Source: Spizellomyces punctatus DAOM BR117 (lineage: Eukaryota). Taken from it: DNA of 64,000 nucleotides. Shown piece after piece: positions 11,536 to 21,082 of the stretch. Location of the stretch: assembly GCA_000182565.2 (NCBI GenBank), contig KQ257454.1; one strand, written 5' to 3'. Every line of letters starts with the position of its first letter. The first letter of the stretch is position 1. The position numbers and the translations under genes were made by a program. The notes under the pieces are model-generated. The model saw only the letters and a program-made list of their open reading frames with translations, searched no databases and was not told the origin of the DNA.

Positions 11536-11861
11536 TCTGCGGTCTCAAAGCCCGTCGTCAGTTGAGAGTTCTAAACTCAAAGAGTTGCTCAACTGTGTCG
11601 GAGGCAGCTTACGAGAAAGTCACGTGATTGTATCACCGATTCCTCATTGGCGACTTCTTTTTGGGCAAGTTGATACCAGAGTTGATGCTTGACCTTTCGC
11701 AACGTTTTCCAGCGATTTTTTCAAGCGCATTTTGACCTTCAGACGGCTCCATCCTTGTATTCAGTCATTCTCAGATCGATAGCTTCTTAGTGTAAACGGT
11801 TCCTACGGCATTTTTTCCCATCTTCTCGGCCATTCGGCAGTACAGCTGCACCAAGAGTGCA

Positions 11862-13873
11862 ATGGCAGCAGACAATTCAGGAGCAGAGCTCGAGGCTGAG
11901 AGAACAAACGAACAGCAAGAGACAATAGAAAAGAAAAGCAATGCTGCTCGTCGAAAGTCCAAGTCGAAAGGGATAGCACCAGAGGAGCTGATAACGAATG
12001 AGAAGAAAGAGATCCCCAATACAAGCTCGACAGATAAAAAGCAGGCTGCTGCATCAAAAAAGTATGATCGTGCAGGAATAACCACCATTTCCTTGAAAGT
12101 GAGTAGAGTGAAGGAAGGAATGGGTGGCATCTTAAGCATGATTTTGACAAGCTACTTTTGCAGGGCGTGGGGGATAAGAAGCTGAAAGGGAAGCTCAAGA
12201 GGTCGGAGAAAGCGGCGCGCGAGGCAGCGTACAAAGCTGCTCAAGCTGAAGTACTGCTTCCAGCTGAGGCTGGATTTTTGGAAGCAGAGGGTCTGGAGAA
12301 AACATGGAAGTTCACACAGAATCAGCTCAAGGACAACTTGGATGCAAATACCAGTAAGAACGTTTTTGACCTCAAGCTGAAAGATTTTGGCCCGTACACG
12401 ATGGACTACACTCGGAATGGACGACATATGCTGATTGGGGGACGGAAAGGGCATATCGCTACATTTGACTGGAAGACGGGAAAGCTCGGCTGCGAACTTC
12501 ATGTCAAAGAAACCATCCGTGATGTGAAATGGCTACATAATGAAACGATGTTTGCTGTGGCACAGAAAAAGTACACGTATATCTACGACAACACTGGTTT
12601 GGAAATTCACTGCTTGAGACAACATACTGAGATAAATAAGCTGGAATTCCTACCGTACCATTTCCTCCTGGTTACCGTGGGCAACGCCGGATGGCTAAAG
12701 TATCAAGATACATCTACCGGCAAACTCGTTGCAGAGCTTCGTACAAAGTTGGGACGGTGCGATACAATGTCCCAAAACCCGTATAATGCCGTCGTACATC
12801 TCGGTCACTCTAACGGGACGGTTACATTGTGGGCCCCCACGGTGTCGACCCCCTTAGTGAAAATGCTATGTCACAAAGGGCCTGTGCAGGGAATTGCGCT
12901 TGATCGAGGAGGAAACTATATGGCCACTACTGGATTAGATGGCCAAATGAAGCTTTGGGATATCCGCACGTATAAATGTCTTCAATCGTACTACACTCGA
13001 ACTCCTGCTGCCACATTGTCGATATCACAACAGGGACTCTTGGCGGTTGGATACGGACCGAACATTAGCGTATGTGATTTACTTAGTTGCATTGTGCGTC
13101 GTGCTTATCATCATTCTTATCACACTGGGTTCCCTTCGTTATGCAGATTTGGAAAAATGCTTTCAAAACAAAGCAGAAGGAACCATATATGACTCACTTA
13201 AGCGCCGGCAATATTGTACAAGATATTAATTTCTGTCCTTACGAGGATGTCCTCGGATTTGGTCACAGCAGTGGCATATCTAGCATTGTTGTTCCCGGAT
13301 CTGGTGAACCGAACTTTGATACTATGGAAGCCAATCCCTTCCAGACGAAAAAGCAGAGACAAGAAACCGAAGTTCATAACCTACTCGATAAGGTTCAGCC
13401 TGAGATGATTGCCCTAAACCCAGAGTTTATCGGTGCTGTTGATCGGGCACCGGCGGAAGTCATTGCGGAGGAGAGGAGGCTGGAATGGGAGGTAGGAAAG
13501 ACCTTCATGTAGTTCGACGCAGCAATACTACTGGACAGTTGTTCACCGGTGCTGTTTGCAGGCAAATCACCCCAACCAAAAGTTTGTCCCCCAGCACCGT
13601 GCTCGAGGAAAGTCCTCCTCTATGCGACGATACTTGCGCAAACAATCGAATGTCCTGGATGCAAAGAAGGTATATTTTGGATTTCTATCGCTGTTCTCTT
13701 CTCTTGTTATTGATATTTCGCATTTGAATTCGTTGCATCAGGTCGAGATGCAAGAGCGTCTCGAAAAGGAAAGAAGAGAGCGTGAGAAGGAGCGCAAGCG
13801 TGCGCGTGGGGAGGGAGAGCCAGAAATACCTCGGACGGCTCTAGATAGATTCACAAAGAAGATAAAAGTCTGA
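11862..13873 (+). CDS. UTP7: SSU processome WD40 protein Utp7/WDR46, spliced
   Basis: FGPYTMDYTRNGRHMLIGGRKGH, LEFLPYHFLL, BING4CT motif PGSGEPNFDTMEANPFQTKKQRQETEV. Confidence 0.93.
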
Positions 13874-14446
13874 AGGTGTATTGGTCATTATTTAATTTTC
13901 ATTAGCGAGTTTTTAAAGTTCAAGGCTGAGTTGCATATATGCATTCAACAGCACAAGGCTTGTTACCCAAATATCTGCCTACAAACACACTGGCAAGCGA
14001 CTGACGTAAGCATCGATCACCCACGTAATCCATTTGTGCACAGTGGACTCTTTGGTTCATCGTCATGGTCAGTGGCAAGTTTTCTATGCAAGTGTCCAAA
14101 TGAAGAGTATTTTGGCATGGCAAAGCTTAACAAGCTCCATAAGCGTCGCAGAGCCCTGCTCTTGGCGTTGGTGGGGTTCGACACGGCGCATCGCAAAGCC
14201 CTGGAGTGGCAAGCTCAATGACTCATCATGGCTCCTGGGGCTTCTTGGCGAGTGTTAAAAGACACAGCTTGTGGTCCGAATAAGGAAAGATAGTGGGATT
14301 TTGCATGGAGTGTGATGGGATATGTGACTATCGTAGCATATGCTTCAATTGCGCCCAATGAGCGCTTATCCATGAGCGCCCTATAAAAGGTGTCCTTGAG
14401 TTTGAGCTCCGTACCATTGGCAAAAACGCTTTCACACAAAGTCCAG

Positions 14447-17400
14447 ATGCATCACTTTTGTCCATCAATCCTCTTTTCTGGTCTCATACTAGGCGGCTTT
14501 CTACCTCTGTTGGCCGCCGAATATCGTTCTTATGATGGGGTTGGCAATAACCCTGGCGGTCTCGCTGGCCTTTCACAGCTCCGGACACCGTTTAGCGGCG
14601 CATGGTACGATATTTCAGATCCCATCAATTATACCAACCGCATTATGGTATTGGAGACAACGGATCCGGTCCTTTCTGCACGTAATGTGTCCAATCAGAT
14701 GGCCTCTGCTATGGTCACTGGTGGACCACGTAAAAATAGGAGGATGATCAATGATTTGCATACGATGTGGGGAGCCATGATTGGGCTGGATTATGTGTGA
14801 GTTTTGAAGTACATGCTTTGGTATTGAATCACGAACCTGGTCTTATAGATGCTGCAATTGGGTCATGTTCAGGAAGACGATGATGAACACCACCAACGTC
14901 ACCATGTCGATCCCGAGGTAAAGTGTTCTTGTTGTGAGCGATTATAGTAGCTGGAACTCCAGAGCTGACACCAGTGACGCATCAGGTGCGATGGCTACTT
15001 TGACCCCGACTGCAGTGAGTACGAGTAGTGACCCATGTCACTACAAAATGAAATCCTCACCGCCCAAAATACTACCCGGTTGCTAATCCAACTTTTAGCC
15101 GGTATCAAGAATTTCACATTTCAACGGGCATTCACAAATGAAAGTGCCAATCCCGAAAGAACCGCACTCAATCTCGTCACTCCCTTCCTAGATGCCGGCG
15201 TCATTTACGGCACGAATGAAACCCGAGCGAGACTTTTACGAACCTTCATCAATGGCAAAATCGTTCTAGACTCTGATGAATTACCCCCACGAATTTCCGA
15301 AATGCCTGCACTGGACATGGTGGGTCCACCTCCTCCATCTCTCGCCACCCAGCTGGGAGATGCAAGTACCCGTGGTGCTCCACGAAGCGAAATGAGAGTG
15401 GGGGGCGATGCGATTTCAAATGTTAACACATTCGGGTTCGTGATTGTTACGTTATTTATGAGGGAACATAATCGATTGTGCGATCAATTTGCGAGCGAGC
15501 ATATAGGGTGGGATGACGAGACCTTGTATCAAGAGGCCCGGAGATGGTAAGTGTTCTGGTATTTGGCATAACTACCTGTATCTTGTAGCTACGAGATTTT
15601 CGAGAAAATAATCATGCTGTTCAAAATTAAGGGTCATTGCTTTCATGCAACGCATCACTTACTACGAATATTTGCCGGCTCTTACGTCTCGCGTACTACC
15701 TACATACACTGGCTTCAACGCTAGCACGAATCCGCAAGTGACCATCTTCAATTCCGCATGCATTTTACGATACGGACATAGCGAAATGAATGATGCAATC
15801 GAACGGCTGGATGAGCGATACGTTCCTCACCCACGGGGTCCGATCTTGGTTCGGGATGCCCCTTTTGATCCCGATAAGGTGCTGGATGCTGGAATTGAAC
15901 CTGTCTTGAGAGGACTTGTGTCTCAAGTGCAGAATCAAGTGGATTGGGAAGTCACTGGCGATTTACGGAACTGGATGTTTGGGCACCCAGCGGGAATGCC
16001 GGGTGTTGATATGATTGCGCTGGATATTCAAAGGGTTAGTTAAAAGAGACCCGATGATTTAATTCTATATTCACATTTCTGGTTACTTTACAGAACCGCG
16101 ATTTTGGCATCCCACCTTACAATGATGTGCGAGAGTCCTATGGCTTGTCACGCGCGAAATCCTTCCAAGAGATTTCGTCCAATCCTCGAATTGCGGCAAC
16201 GTTGGCAAACATGTACGGGTCGGTCGATAGAGTTGAGGCCTGTATCGGTAAGTCACTGTTGATAAACAAACCTTCAATAATCAGCAGAGTTGCATGTTCA
16301 GCAATATCTGCAGGTGCGCTGGCAGAGGATGAATGGCCCGGCTGCAATATGGGTCAGCTGCTTCATGAAGGCCTTCGGGAACAGCTGACTAGAATACGGT
16401 AGGGCATCTTAGTTCATGTTTAGAGTTACTTTCGTAGGTTACTAAACGATACTGTTAGCAACGGCGACAAATTCTGGTACCAAAATGAGCAGTTCGCACC
16501 CGAGGACCTCAAGATCATCGAGTCAACATTGTTGAGGGACATCATCGCCCGGAATACATTGTGGAAAGATCCGCCAATAAACGTGTTTTTCTCTCTGGGG
16601 GCACAGATGAGCCGAAGAAATCTAGTCGAGGCTGAGCATGCGCTAGCAAAAAATGAAGAGTTCCTTGAAGACTTTCCAAAAATTTCTGGAAAAGAGCAGG
16701 CAATGCATTTAGGACCGGCGTTCAAAATGTACTGGAGTGTCAACGTGAGGAAGGGAGAGGCAGAGTTTGTTGTTGTTGGACGTAATGAGGTCCGTGCTTT
16801 TGCTTTGACGGTTCATTGTTTGTTTTGTTTATACTGAAAAAGTCAAGTAGGGTTGGATTGGCGTAGGATTTGAACCTGATGATTCAGGTATGACCAACGC
16901 AGACATGGTCCTCGGCTACGCACTCGAAAACGGTACTACCTATATTCGTGGCGCCCGCTCGGTGGCAAACGAGCCCCCAATTCCCTATCCAACTGATAAC
17001 CCTGGAATCACGAACGCAAGCGCGGCACGCATCCATGGATTCACAGTTTTGAAATTCACTAGACCATTAGCTGCCCGTCCTCCATTCAACAAAACCTTGC
17101 CAATTGCAAGACCTGCGAAAGTGGTATATGCAATGAATCCAATGTATGTCGAACCCTTATATCACGGGCCTGAAAGAGGATTGGCAAATGTGGACTTGGT
17201 GCCTGCTTATGGTAAGAAGATGGACTTTAGATCATGTATCAGATCGCTCAACTTTCTTGATACAGTGAACTACCGTCCTGTAACCTTCAATAGCGCTATC
17301 GGGATTGTTTTCACCGTCATTGGGACAATTCTGCTCTCGATAACACTAGCAACCATATACGTGGTCATTACTCGTCGAATGGACCCTATCGTCCGCAGAT

Positions 17401-18519
17401 CAAGTCCACCCTTTCTTCTCATCATCCTGGTCGGCGTGGCTTTGGGGTACGTGTGCATATTCGTCTGGACGATCCCAAGGAGTGATGCCGCGTGCAAAGC
17501 AAGGATGTGGTTGGTAGGATTGGCTTATATCTTGATGTTTGGGTGAGTTCCACCGCCCCGTTGCCGATTGTTCACTGATTCTAACCATCAGGTGGTGGAT
17601 ACAGCTTTGCAACTGTAAAAAACTACCGTATATACTTGGTGTTTCGGGGAGCAAGTGGATCCAATTTGAGTACTCGCGCCGTTCTTTTGGGAAGTATCCC
17701 ATTGCTGGCCATTGAAGTGGTAAGCGAACATCGTCGTGCAAGGCATTTGTATTCCCAATCATTAACAAACATTCATTGGGAGATCCTCCTTACGATATGG
17801 ACATTTGCCGACGCACCATACCTTCGTGTAACCAGCGATATGGTAGATTGTTGGTATGGTCGTGTGATGCCAGCAATTGTGCTGGCATACAATCTGCTTA
17901 TTTTATTGTGCGGCCTATACATTGCCGTGTGCGTCCGTCATGCATATACCGACTATCGGGATTCATTTGCGATTGCATTTTCGGTAAGTATCTGCTAATA
18001 ACTGACACCACAAGTGATCTCAACAAGTATTAACTTTTGGGATAGACGTACAATTTTGTGATGTGCATTATCATTCTTGTACCCGTATCGGTCTCAGGTC
18101 GCACCGCTGTCGAGCGATATGTTCTCGAATGCATAGCAATCCTCTTGGTAACAACAGGGGTCCTAGCGTTTTTCTTTGGTGGCAAGTTATGGACAATCTA
18201 TGTCATCAATCGTGGTAGCATCCGTCTTTCTTCGTCATTCGTCCCAGAACACGAGTACCGAGGATCTCGACATTGGGCTTGGTCGTTCGGGAGCGCTTGG
18301 AGGCATACCCTAAGGGTGCGGAACCCGGAGGAACAGAGAGTGGAGGTGACAACACCTGCGAATCAAGAACCAAAACCTGGAGAGGGGGAGGCTGTTGCCT
18401 CGAACAGTGTCATCTCGTCCCCAACGATCGGCCAAGCATTGATGGAGAGGCTTTTCATCGTTAACCGGTCAACAGAAACCCAATCCAAACCGACCACAGA
18501 AACAGAAGGCGTCATATGA
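14447..18519 (+). CDS. Signal peptide - animal-type heme peroxidase - DOMON - class C GPCR 7TM fusion (13 exons, ~1090 aa)
   Basis: Exons 14447-14796, 14873-14917, 14986-15014, 15099-15546, 15632-16034, 16094-16247, 16314-16398, 16459-16789, 16851-17211, 17266-17542, 17605-17719, 17783-17983, 18046-18519 join in frame (3273 nt). Peroxidase motifs YRSYDGVGNN, TPFLDAGVIYG, FMREHNRLCD, LYQEARRW, LRYGHS, DIQRNRD, GDKFWY. DOMON motif GWIGVGF...GMTNADMV...LYHG. 7TM motifs IVRRSSPPF, CKARMW, KNYRIY. Confidence 0.85.
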
Positions 18520-18652
18520 TGATGAATATTGGTAGTATTTTCGTCCTTTGATAAGGAGCTGTAGGGTGCAAGGCAACAACATGGCCTATTCGCATGTAAA
18601 TTAATAGCTTAAACCTTGGGAATGGAAAAAGATTTTGCTGCAAAACCCTGCT

Positions 18653-19363
18653 TCAAAACAGCTGTCTATACACACTAGCAACAACAGTACCAGACAACAT
18701 ACACAACAATATGGAGGTGCCAAAGTACTCAGTGTGCAGGCGCGCAAAAGTTCTAATGTCCTTGCCGTAGTTGATGTTTTCGGTAGGCTTTGATTCAACA
18801 GGTAAATAATTCAGGGGAGGTTGGCCGTTTGCTGATAACAAGCTTTCAAGCTCTGACCGCGCAACTTGCAATTTGGATTTTATGGTTTCATTAGAACCTA
18901 CCATATGCTTTCTTTAGCCATTTTGCTGCTCCGGGAGTTCCGACCAAACTTTTTGCAGAGGCTGTGAAGGATGAAAATTACTAGTGGCGAGTCGTACGAA
19001 AGTGATATCTTGACAGCTGCGGATGGTGAAAATGGCGAGAAACAACTTGTCCTCCAAGGATGTACATTAAACACCATGCAAAGCACACACTCTCGGATCC
19101 CCGTATCAACTGGTTGAACAAGAAAGATTAGTTAGTCCTTTAGAACTTTTTTTTTTTGTTTCACTATCAGCGATTTATTGTCAAGGGTGGAATTCGTCCC
19201 TTTCTCCATTTCTGATTATCCTCGGTCTGATTTGACGGTTCTCAGCTTTCTTTGGACCGTACACCTTAGGCACAGAGGAGTACGCACTGCACCTACCAAA
19301 ACCTTTTGGGAAAAATCCAACGATGGCCTGTAAGTAATCGTTTTGTTCATGTACTCGCTTCAT
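18653..19363 (-). CDS. Possible small multi-exon hypothetical protein with a C-terminal hydrophobic segment
   Basis: Several GT...AG pairs allow an in-frame ~115-aa product ending FGTSILLCMLSGTVVASVYRQLF; no family recognised and the model is uncertain. Confidence 0.3.
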
Positions 19364-19401: not shown

Positions 19402-21082
19402 ATGACCTCATCTGGCCGAATGATGAAGCGGCTTCTTCGCCAATTAAACAGAATACCCATGGTAAAAGAAGCAAATGTGAAAACTAGTTTTTTGCTCCTT
19501 GCTAATATGGATAGAAAATCATGTTAGCTTGCATGGATTTTCATCATGAGTGGATTGGGGATCATGTTTGGTCTTGTTGCTCCTCAGTTTTCAAAAGAGT
19601 ACCTAGCACTCCTCTCCACTCATATCTTCTTGCCCATGGTGAAATCGCTCATTGTTCCCCTCATATTCTCGTAAGTTGCCTTCTTTTAGGCTTTTTAAAA
19701 AGGGCTGTTGGGCTTAATGTTACGTTTGCGAGCAAGGCTGCTGGTGGTTGGAATTGCTGGACATGGAGACGACCTCGCACGGGTAGGAAAACTCGGAGTA
19801 AAATCCATGGCGTACTTTCTAGGATTGACTTTTATTGCCAGTGAGTTTCACAGTTTTCATTGGAGGGCCATACTATTATGATTTTCTTTTGCTTATTCCT
19901 TTGTGGTCTCTAGTTTTCATTGGTCTCGGGTTTGGGAATGCGATTAAACCAGGAAACGGAGTGACATTGGGTGAAGTCAAAAACGCCAATGCCACAGCTG
20001 CAATCAAAAGCCAAAAAATCTCCCTAGCATACGAACTCAACCAAATCATTCCCGAATCGTTTTTCGCTGCGGCTTCCGCCAACAAGTCGTTGCAGATTAC
20101 CTTTTGTGCAATCATGTTTGCTTGCGCTTGTATGCTGGTCCCGAATAAGGAGCATAAACGAGTCATGGTGGATTTTTTTGATGGTTTGGCGAACGTCATG
20201 TTGTCTGTTACGAATTTAGTGATGAAGTTTACACCTCTGGTGAGTATCTAATTTGAAAAAAACGAATCTAACGTTTCTTTAACCTTTATATTCGTTTCAG
20301 GCCATCGGCGGAGCCTTGGCGAAAACAATTGCCACAAACGGAATCGGCGTTCTGTCTACTCTTGGAAAACTGATCGGAACCGTTTACCTCGGCCTCCTCA
20401 CATTTGTTTTCGTTATCCTCCTTCCCATCGCCCTTTGGGCCAAAGTCCCACTAGTGCCCTTTATGCGACAGGTTTCTCATCCCCTCATCATTGCCTTTTC
20501 GACTGCCTCATCCGATGCTGCCTTGGCAAAGGCAATGGAGAACATGATAGAGCTGGGCGTTCCAAGGGAAATTGTTTCATTTGTTATTCCTGTAGGGTAC
20601 TCGTTCAATCTTGATGGTACAACTTTGTACCTAGGGACTGCAGTCCTGTTCGCCGCGCAGGTTGCCAATGTAAACTGGAGTGTTGGCGAGCAGATCTTGC
20701 GAATGCTCTTGGTCTTGCTAATGAGCAAAGGGATTGCTGGTGTGCCGAGGGCATCGTTGGTAGTCTTGGCCATGGCATGCGACAATTGGAACTTGCCAAC
20801 CGAGATTGTTGGTTTGGTACTTGGAGTGGATGAAATCATGGATATGGCCAGAACGGCTGTCAATTTGCGTATGTGCTCTCTTATTGGCGCAGATATTCTT
20901 GAGATCGTTGGCTAATCTTTGAATGCTTTCGCGGAAAAGTCGGAAATTGCCTAGCTTGCGTCGTTATTGCCCGCTGGGAGGGCGTCTTCAAACTATACAG
21001 GCAATCGACCGACGACAGCGACATTGAGGACTCCCCTGATGCGCTACATGTGAAGCTAGACGTGGATAAGACTGTTGCATGA
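19402..21082 (+). CDS. Dicarboxylate/amino acid:cation symporter (DAACS/SDF, GltP-like), spliced
   Basis: MVKSLIVPLIF, IAFSTASSDAAL (HP1), GYSFNLDGT (TM7), SKGIAGVPRAS (HP2), DMARTAVNLVGNCLA. Confidence 0.92.

Follow-up and report, generated by a model that had tools for sequence, protein, structure and literature searches.

The window analysed here, 64,000 nucleotides of DNA from Spizellomyces punctatus DAOM BR117 (contig KQ257454.1), carries at positions 14447-18519 of the + strand a gene predicted to encode a membrane receptor whose ectodomain consists of a peroxidase-like domain and a DOMON domain, followed by a seven-helix domain of the class C G-protein-coupled receptor (GPCR) type. The locus appears as a series of short open reading frames (ORFs) in shifting frames, joinable at 12 GT..AG introns of 52-85 nt each. 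Splicing of the 13 exons yields an uninterrupted coding sequence of 3297 nt and 1098 amino acids when exon 2 starts at 14849, or a product of 1090 amino acids when it starts at 14873 (alternative acceptor 14872/14873), which confirms the open coding sequence of the original prediction, 13 GT-AG exons in one frame of about 1090 amino acids, in its 14873 form. The spliced protein reads, in order, as signal peptide, An_peroxidase, DOMON, 7tm_3 and a cytosolic tail of approximately 105 amino acids.

The choice among splice variants was guided by scores against a family profile from which Spizellomyces sequences had been left out, in which the 14873 variant (780.9 bits) exceeded both the 14849 acceptor (770.0 bits) and a form retaining intron 9 (763.5 bits). 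Each variant gave one alignment over family-profile positions 16-966, and the 8 extra amino acids of the 14849 variant stood opposite gaps in 20/20 other alignment rows.

The peroxidase-like part of the protein is spread over eight exons, all on the + strand. Exon 1 (14447-14796, donor GTGAGT) holds the ATG, the signal peptide (14447-14518; hydrophobic, signal-peptide-like at residues 3-27) and the N-terminal part of the domain with the motif WGAMIGLDY, including Leu114 (14786-14788), and is followed by exon 2 (14873-14917, placed by the family-profile score) and by exon 3 (14986-15014), whose 29 nt encode CDGYFDPDC and restore the family consensus PxCDPxFDP. The core lies in exon 4 (15099-15546), with GDAISNV, containing Ile247 (15413-15415) and Val250, and then an REHNRL helix, and in exon 5 (15632-16034), with the proximal His340 (15777-15779) in RYGHSE. 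The domain continues through exon 6 (16094-16247) and exon 7 (16314-16398), the latter collinear with the orthologue P0001 described below, and ends in exon 8 (16459-16789) with GDKFWYQNE and the residues after it, ahead of a linker. The exon translations match Pfam An_peroxidase (PF03098) collinearly over profile positions 1-82, 128-259 (exon 4, best E 5.9e-26), 261-400 (exon 5, E 1.1e-25), 401-451 (exon 6, E 2.1e-11) and 483-520 (exon 8), and solved relatives in a phmmer search of the PDB include 8s6c (E 3.9e-75), DdPoxA (6erc, E 3.2e-63) and DUOX1 (E 1.3e-36).

Pocket residues were read from alignments to solved peroxidases, family rows and outgroup rows. In the window protein the canonical WGQFLDHD has become WGAMIGLD, with Gln replaced by Ala, Asp by Gly and the distal His by Leu; GDxRxNE has become GDAISNV, with the catalytic Arg replaced by Ile and Glu by Val; and of (F/Y)R(F/Y)GH, represented by RYGHSE, the proximal haem-ligating His340 is kept. 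A pocket of Ala, Gly, Leu, Ile and Val is fully apolar and therefore cannot be a conventional peroxidase site, so that the domain is best read, from its residues, as a peroxidase-like haem pocket and not as a working peroxidase. The earlier assignment to the peroxidase-cyclooxygenase superfamily (An_peroxidase) accordingly stands for family match and fold, with the distal Gln, Asp and His, the Arg and the Glu all lost.

The DOMON domain begins in exon 8, which alone encodes both the end of the peroxidase domain and, by DOMON alignment, the first DOMON strands, and has its core in exon 9 (16851-17211, +), with Met629 (16890-16892) and His720 (17163-17165) as candidate axial haem-b ligands. The Pfam DOMON profile (PF03351) is matched over positions 30-123 by ORF 16851-17546 (E 1.5e-11; 45.1 bits against a cut-off of 32.7). 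In an alignment of 26 DOMON rows, comprising 12 receptor forms, 11 other forms and 3 repeats of the multi-DOMON protein P0002, the motifs GW.G.GF...M..D and YHG(P)xR, which contain this Met and His, are conserved in at least 80% of rows, the window included. In the cytochrome of cellobiose dehydrogenase and in CYBDOM/AIR12 DOMON domains, a conserved Met/His pair provides the ligands of haem b (bioRxiv 10.1101/2023.10.10.561639). The DOMON His lies on the last strand, some 15-25 residues before the first transmembrane helix (TM1), and the linker is without a cysteine-rich domain; this position near TM1 would offer a short mechanical path from haem to helix bundle. The nearest DOMON domain outside the family is that of P0002 (36% identity), which combines three DOMON repeats with EGF-like domains and with hydrophobic segments at its C-terminus, and which has no Pfam b561 match. 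Tandem repetition is more extensive in the environmental protein P0020 (2531 amino acids), in which a local hidden Markov model (HMM) finds 12 DOMON-like repeats.

The seven-helix domain occupies the last four exons. Exon 10 (17266-17542, +) encodes TM1-TM3, with IVRRSSPPF at residue 777 in intracellular loop 1 (ICL1) and the Cys at the top of TM3 (17493-17495) in AACKARMW. Exon 11 (17605-17719, +), assigned by alignment to seven-transmembrane (7TM) relatives, encodes the end of TM3 with KNYRIY at residue 833 (Lys833, 17618-17620), ICL2 and the start of TM4, and is followed by exon 12 (17783-17983, +) with the end of TM4, extracellular loop 2 (ECL2) bearing a Cys (17849-17851) in DCWYG, TM5 and ICL3, and by exon 13 (18046-18519, +) with TM6-TM7, the tail and the TGA stop codon (18517-18519). 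Pfam 7tm_3 (PF00003) is matched on these translations at profile positions 2-88 (exon 10, E 7.1e-16), 131-203 (exon 12, E 1.9e-6) and 204-249 (exon 13, E 9.8e-4). The seven hydrophobic segments span residues 748-993 of the 1098-residue model, and 11/13 N-x-S/T sequons fall in the ectodomain.

Several lines of evidence converge on a class C identity for this domain. A sequence search of the PDB returned mGlu1 as the closest solved relative (E 5.4e-11), followed by mGlu2/5, GABA-B2 and CaSR, and the window TM3 Cys and K..RI align with those of mGlu1. Twelve family rows conserve, in at least 80% of cases, the TM3-top Cys, K..RI at the end of TM3 and the ECL2 Cys, and the family also conserves R..P.F in ICL1, WL.G and an acidic residue at the start of TM6; the conserved ICL1, TM3, ECL2 and TM6 positions are class C hallmarks. 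The Spizellomyces 7TM domain scores 115.5 bits against a 10-sequence family 7TM HMM, compared with 144.2 bits against Pfam 7tm_3, and is 21-30% identical to individual family members. A cytochrome b561 identity for the membrane part was ruled out: neither the window exons nor P0001 match PF03188 in a scan that detects b561 in other relatives, and the family TM alignment contains no conserved His. Pfam likewise found no ANF_receptor or periplasmic-binding-protein (Venus-flytrap) match on any exon or on P0001, and no NOX-type ferric-reductase transmembrane, FAD or NADPH domain in the window protein or P0001. The original prediction had named a class C 7tm_3 domain instead of b561, had quoted IVRRSSPPF, KNYRIY and the TM3-top and ECL2 Cys residues, and had proposed that a Venus-flytrap domain was replaced; all of these motifs are present, mGlu1 and GABA-B2 are among the best solved relatives, and the suggested comparison of the protein with PF03098, PF03351 and PF00003 by HMMER matched all three domains, both on the exon translations and on P0001.

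Equally important is the continuity of the three domains within one gene. Because intron 9 (17212-17265, +) is a 54-nt GT..AG intron that is in frame and free of stop codons, DOMON and TM1-3 share the single ORF 16851-17546, which encodes them without any splicing. With the peroxidase-DOMON junction inside exon 8, two domain junctions therefore lie inside single ORFs, and the locus is one gene, not two, as had been claimed together with the domain order; the collinear matches to three profiles across 13 exons are not due to chance. A retained-intron-9 isoform would add 18 amino acids to the DOMON-TM1 linker and leave the protein unbroken.

Database searches gave one close relative only, P0001, a 1133-residue hypothetical protein from Spizellomyces sp. 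'palustris', with 87.9% identity to the spliced window model over 1141 aligned columns and 87% over the DOMON-TM1-3 ORF. Its Pfam matches are An_peroxidase at 26-573 (E 1.4e-102), DOMON at 629-753 (E 8.4e-12, 45.8 bits) and 7tm_3 at 785-1023 (E 7.1e-42, 144.2 bits, profile 2-251). The deposited P0001 model seemingly treats as coding sequence the counterparts of introns 2-3 and of part of intron 8, which correspond to window 14797-15098 and 16790-16850; residues ~117-201, where the predicted local distance difference test (pLDDT) is below 50 and the family motif PxCDPxFDP is missing, and residues ~650-657 are concerned, and window exons 2-3 restore that motif.

An AlphaFold2 (AF2) model of P0001, built from a 19-row alignment, has a peroxidase core at pLDDT 80-95, followed by a beta-sandwich (620-772) and by seven long helices (788-1028). 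Foldseek matched the peroxidase part of this model to 8s6c and DdPoxA (6erc) with TM-scores (target) of 0.73-0.74. Among the best 50 Foldseek rows, dominated by peroxidases, there was no 7TM or DOMON match, so the class C identity rests on sequence profiles, and a search of the ESM Atlas with the DOMON-7TM part of P0001 gave no usable match. The structural check proposed earlier has thus recovered the peroxidase fold and a modelled beta-sandwich with seven helices, and no structural match to DOMON or 7TM domains in those 50 rows.

Beyond Spizellomyces, the three-domain architecture recurs. An exhaustive phmmer search with P0001 against 1.84 billion representatives returned 10176 proteins at E <= 0.001, of which the best 150 were examined; a word-indexed homologue search with P0001 residues 580-1030 returned only P0001 itself. 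Among these best 150 of 10176, local HMMs found the family 7TM in 12 and DOMON in 34, and Pfam found all three domains in 11 (P0001, P0008, P0012, P0019, P0021, P0031, P0038, P0040, P0058, P0081 and P0136), with P0109 as a truncated twelfth 7tm_3 form and P0161 added by profile search. At least 12 further three-domain representatives, 25-34% identical to P0001, are thereby available, several of which give a single alignment spanning the three domains (P0008, for instance, over query 273-1028). P0012 is an MMETSP transcript of Vexillifera abyssalis and P0019 a Trinity transcript of Rhizamoeba saxonica, so single transcripts with the fusion exist in Amoebozoa; the other members are JGI or Logan contigs, two JGI records bearing an automatic three-domain name. 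Judged from these sequences, the architecture is a family found in at least two eukaryotic supergroups and in environmental sequences. As to whether it was already described and widespread, a recurrent family was found and a description was not. In five receptor forms (P0012, P0021, P0031, P0058 and P0136) the peroxidase domain begins only at residue 292-431, and the preceding 290-430 N-terminal residues have no Pfam match at E <= 0.001; this extension is absent from the Spizellomyces proteins.

The peroxidase-DOMON cassette is also joined to other partners. Among the 34 DOMON-bearing representatives of the best 150, it precedes 7tm_3 in 12/34, cytochrome b561 only in 3/34 (P0009, P0011 and P0098), and Cyt-b5, FAD_binding_6 and NAD_binding_1, with or without b561, in 10/34 (P0010, P0022, P0027, P0032, P0082, P0084, P0092, P0102, P0105 and P0114). 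A nucleotide cyclase follows it in 3/34 (P0007, from the diplonemid Sulcionema specki, P0013 and P0033; a fourth cyclase form, P0159, was added by profile search) and a protein kinase in 1/34 (P0014), while 2/34 (P0128 and P0143) have no further Pfam domain and 3/34 (P0020, P0061 and P0119) lay outside the Pfam partner scan. In the cyclase and kinase forms a single hydrophobic segment separates DOMON from the catalytic domain, giving these proteins the topology of receptors.

A profile search gave 172 matches at E <= 1e-30 among 8000 scored candidates. Among the best 120 of these 172, which were listed, the electron-chain form was found in Rhizophagus, Gigaspora, Funneliformis, Entrophospora, Cetraspora, Dentiscutata, Boothiomyces, Sorochytrium and Paraphysoderma, and the b561 form in the green alga Tetradesmus. 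In many early-diverging fungi, among them Glomeromycota, chytrids and Blastocladiomycota, one polypeptide carries An_peroxidase-DOMON-b561-Cyt-b5-FAD-NAD (P0010, P0022, P0027, P0032, P0082, P0102, P0105, P0114, P0163, P0175, P0178, P0194 and others). Such a series apparently supplies every carrier needed between cytosolic NAD(P)H and a peroxidase-fold haem outside the cell. The Phe that replaces the distal His in many electron-chain proteins hints at chemistry other than peroxide reduction. The only annotation of these peroxidase-DOMON-b561/b5/FAD/NAD proteins is 'heme peroxidase', and the full-text literature searched yielded no paper on them. The contrast drawn earlier with DUOX, that peroxidase-membrane fusions end in an oxidoreductase, is therefore incomplete: the window fusion does end in a receptor, and the same cassette also precedes b561, Cyt-b5, FAD and NAD domains.

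In a quick IQ-TREE analysis of the peroxidase and DOMON parts (42 rows), the DOMON-linked peroxidase domains formed one starred clade (99*), apart from 7/8 DOMON-less rows, the eighth, P0066 (a 514-residue fragment), falling inside it, and eleven 7tm_3 rows together with the kinase formed a starred clade (99*). Across the family the proximal His is present in 14/14 receptor forms, and the distal His in 0/13 receptor rows with a residue at that position (L, L, G, I, T, V, M, N, V, M, S, F, N); DOMON-less outgroup rows have the distal His in 6/7 with a residue there. The distal His is thus missing from every receptor row with a residue there, though not from receptor forms alone, and therefore His loss alone is no mark of a sensor; as a strict rule this was rejected, many Glomeromycota electron-chain forms having Phe at the site. 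That the proximal His never varies among receptor forms only 25-34% identical overall speaks for continued haem binding, and with the DOMON Met/His pair also conserved, the "potentially two-heme ectodomain" of the original prediction is plausible.

Expression of the locus was assessed with RNA raw reads of the same species label (run X6), which are strongly 3'-biased. Depth in the last three bins (18269-18700) was 25.2, 111.9 (18416-18562) and 55 (18563-18700), with first mates on the + strand, whereas depth over the gene body was sparse (0-1.6). Loose poly(A) ends occur at 18645 (5 reads) and 18650 (4 reads) and therefore put the mRNA end about 126-131 nt past the stop codon, defining a 3' untranslated region at 18520-18650 (+) with poly(A) addition at ~18645-18650; the 3' exon is transcribed and polyadenylated. 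The single transcript and exon structure in S. punctatus are predicted from ORF continuity and homology. Contig runs X1, X2 and X4 were set aside as splicing evidence, being low-depth genomic DNA whose pieces cross introns. Upstream, a TATA-like element, TATAAAAG, can be read directly at 14382-14389 (+), 58 nt before the ATG, and may act as a promoter. Just 5' of the ATG, window 14300-14446 shows an X6 depth of 6.85 on the + strand; these reads could represent the 5' untranslated region of this gene (3' of TATAAAAG) or the 3' end of an upstream WD-repeat gene. That neighbour (11796-13873, +) encodes, as read from its ORF translation, a WD-repeat protein with a basic C-terminal tail, and the downstream neighbour (19829-20915, +), read in the same way, a multi-pass membrane protein resembling sodium:dicarboxylate symporters. 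Both look unrelated to the receptor gene, and a tblastn search with P0001 found no second copy of the gene in the window.

Taken at the level of function, the electron-chain partners indicate that the peroxidase-DOMON unit is at root a redox module with DOMON as its relay cytochrome. The unit is found on a GPCR, on receptor cyclases and on a receptor kinase alike, and sensor domains typically recur in this way. Because the receptor forms have neither an electron source nor the distal His, and the cassette recurs on signalling outputs, a haem-sensor function is favoured, and we give somewhat better than even chances to the proposal that the receptor is a haem-based extracellular redox or small-ligand sensor built on a class C receptor. 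According to this proposal, the one gene would give rise to a plasma-membrane receptor whose signal peptide places the two-domain ectodomain outside the cell; the cassette would descend from a redox module in which DOMON passed electrons to or from the peroxidase haem; and the receptor forms, no longer turning over peroxide, would have an ectodomain that reports the oxidation or ligation state of its haem or haems, as set by external oxidants, reductants, H2O2, O2 or NO. A change in haem state would then act on the 7TM domain and, through it, on heterotrimeric G proteins. A wider version, which we advance tentatively and rate as somewhat likelier to fail than to hold, is that these are the first haem-cofactor GPCRs, in which a two-haem ectodomain reads oxidant, O2/NO or redox potential into G-protein signalling, and that the cassette is a general, hitherto unrecognised eukaryotic extracellular redox-sensor module, derived from a transmembrane NAD(P)H-to-haem chain and wired, possibly repeatedly, to GPCR, cyclase and kinase outputs.

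Several observations weigh against such a sensor. Binding of haem, the nature of the ligand, the conformational relay and coupling to G proteins are steps that we infer. The distal His is kept in 12/21 electron-chain forms with a residue at that site (8 have Phe and 1 Met) and in 2/4 cyclase forms, and the 13 His-less receptor rows count as no more than two independent events. The 10/14 receptor forms that keep the distal Arg may still carry out some chemistry. Human DUOX1 provides, in its peroxidase-homology domain, a precedent for this fold without haem. In the tree, a long stem (1.07) carries the window protein and P0001, which are placed beside the cyclases with an unstarred support of 92; forcing the receptor forms and the kinase into one clade cost 8.35 log-likelihood units and was not rejected by the approximately unbiased test (p-AU 0.179). 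The AF2 model of P0001 is of moderate confidence as a whole (mean pLDDT 66.4, predicted TM-score 0.58), so that its inter-domain arrangement was not used, and among the X6 RNA reads no splice junction reached the listing threshold.

These points give substance to rival explanations, of which one, unlikely in our estimation, is a membrane-anchored enzyme: the ectodomain would be an oxidase or oxygenase, with O2 at a hydrophobic ferrous haem, or a peroxidase using other residues, DOMON would serve as electron relay, and the 7TM domain as anchor or product sensor. The nearest architectural relatives do wire the cassette to an NAD(P)H/FAD/b5/b561 chain, which is a catalytic context, and the 9/21 electron-chain forms without a distal His indicate that a His-less pocket is compatible with some catalysis, as may be the distal Arg of most receptor forms. 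Yet no b561, b5, FAD or NAD match and no conserved transmembrane His were found in the receptor forms, the window protein lacks the distal His and Arg alike in its apolar pocket, and a full-length, conserved class C 7TM domain, with its TM3 Lys/Arg and Cys pair, exceeds the needs of an anchor; the cyclase and kinase versions, too, favour a signalling output.

Conversely, the ectodomain might have given up its cofactor altogether and become a pseudo-enzyme that binds a sugar, lipid, protein or cell-wall ligand, or mediates peroxinectin-like adhesion. All five distal catalytic or haem-linking positions are altered, and DUOX1, a fold relative, has a peroxidase-homology domain that is reported to be haem-free. 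Binding of haem or of sugars, moreover, has been ascribed to DOMON domains (Iyer et al. 2007, cited in PMC8027222). We nevertheless think this improbable: conservation of the ligand residues, that is, of the proximal His in every receptor form despite 25-34% identity and of the DOMON Met/His throughout, is hard to explain without a cofactor, and the DOMON domain is most like those of P0002. That the fusion is a gene-model artefact, a secreted peroxidase-DOMON gene lying head to tail with a separate class C receptor gene, is very improbable. The lack of junction-spanning RNA reads and the close spacing of chytrid genes would allow it, but ORF 16851-17546 carries DOMON and TM1-3 without a splice, no stop, start context or intergenic spacer lies between the domains, and 13 other proteins share the fusion, two of them transcriptome-derived, with single alignments spanning the three domains.

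Comparison with known systems places the haem-sensor proposal between several established designs. Class C GPCRs without a cysteine-rich domain (GABA-B, Dictyostelium Grl and the fungal 'Glutamate family') share with the window protein a full-length 7tm_3 domain, the TM3-top and ECL2 Cys residues, K..RI and a large ectodomain on a short linker, but the window protein has An_peroxidase and DOMON where these have an ANF/PBP Venus-flytrap, NCD3G or Cache domain. DUOX, related in sequence (E 1.3e-36) and fold, likewise sets an extracellular peroxidase-homology domain of the same superfamily on a multi-pass membrane domain, and its haem pocket in vertebrates is also degenerate; it differs in its NOX-type ferric-reductase transmembrane part, EF hands and FAD/NADPH domains and in making H2O2, whereas the membrane part of the window protein is a GPCR, with DOMON interposed and no electron source. 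The CYBDOM proteins (DOMON with b561; SDR2/FRRS1 and the plant CRR/AIR12 relatives) place DOMON Met/His haem-b ligands directly before the membrane domain in the same way, but the window protein has 7tm_3 instead of b561, no conserved transmembrane His and a peroxidase-fold domain in front.

Closest in composition are the fungal peroxidase-DOMON-b561/Cyt-b5/FAD/NAD proteins of Rhizophagus, Gigaspora, Paraphysoderma, Boothiomyces and Sorochytrium, which have the same cassette, belong to the same peroxidase clade (99*) and come from the same part of the fungal tree, and which differ in carrying a transmembrane electron chain instead of a receptor domain. For the proposed mechanism, the parallel lies with H-NOX/soluble guanylate cyclase, globin-coupled sensors and haem-PAS kinases, where a His-ligated haem in an apolar pocket drives a cyclase, kinase or receptor output, as it may in the window protein; these outputs are paralleled by the cyclase and kinase versions of the cassette. 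The folds of these sensors are unrelated to the cassette and the proteins are cytosolic or bacterial, and we know of none that serves as a GPCR ectodomain.

Earlier surveys provide some context for the locus itself. The available text of Krishnan et al. 2012 (PMC3251606) assigns 14 receptors of S. punctatus to the Glutamate family, with no ectodomains other than the PBP type, and the window locus may be among these 14 receptors; the words peroxidase and DOMON do not occur in the available text of that paper or of a 2025 eLife GPCR survey (PMC12716839). The available parts of PMC5410147 and PMC4760084 contain no statement on G-alpha in Spizellomyces. A search of the full-text literature, with about 1.7 million PMC articles and all subscription journals outside its reach, found no paper that deals with a peroxidase-DOMON-GPCR or with the cassette in any other combination, in keeping with the initial remark that no characterised protein has this architecture.

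Altogether, the receptor design is real and conserved, and no description of it was found in the searchable literature; it is a variant of both class C GPCRs and haem-based sensors. Class C GPCRs are thought of as nutrient, amino-acid and ion receptors with Venus-flytrap or Cache ectodomains, and haem-based sensing is known from cytosolic and bacterial proteins. Spizellomyces is a non-pathogenic chytrid that is genetically transformable, so the hypothesis is directly testable, although a role in zoospore or host sensing, like the identity of any ligand, is for now pure speculation. The cassette family, whose partners are a GPCR, a cyclase, a kinase or an electron chain, has members in fungi, Amoebozoa, diplonemids and green algae, which databases annotate only as 'heme peroxidase' or 'hypothetical protein'. 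If the haem-sensor proposal is true, extracellular redox state, peroxide or gas would constitute a new input class for GPCR signalling, and the receptor would be a testable candidate for the sensing of oxidative or oxygen gradients by motile zoospores and amoebae.

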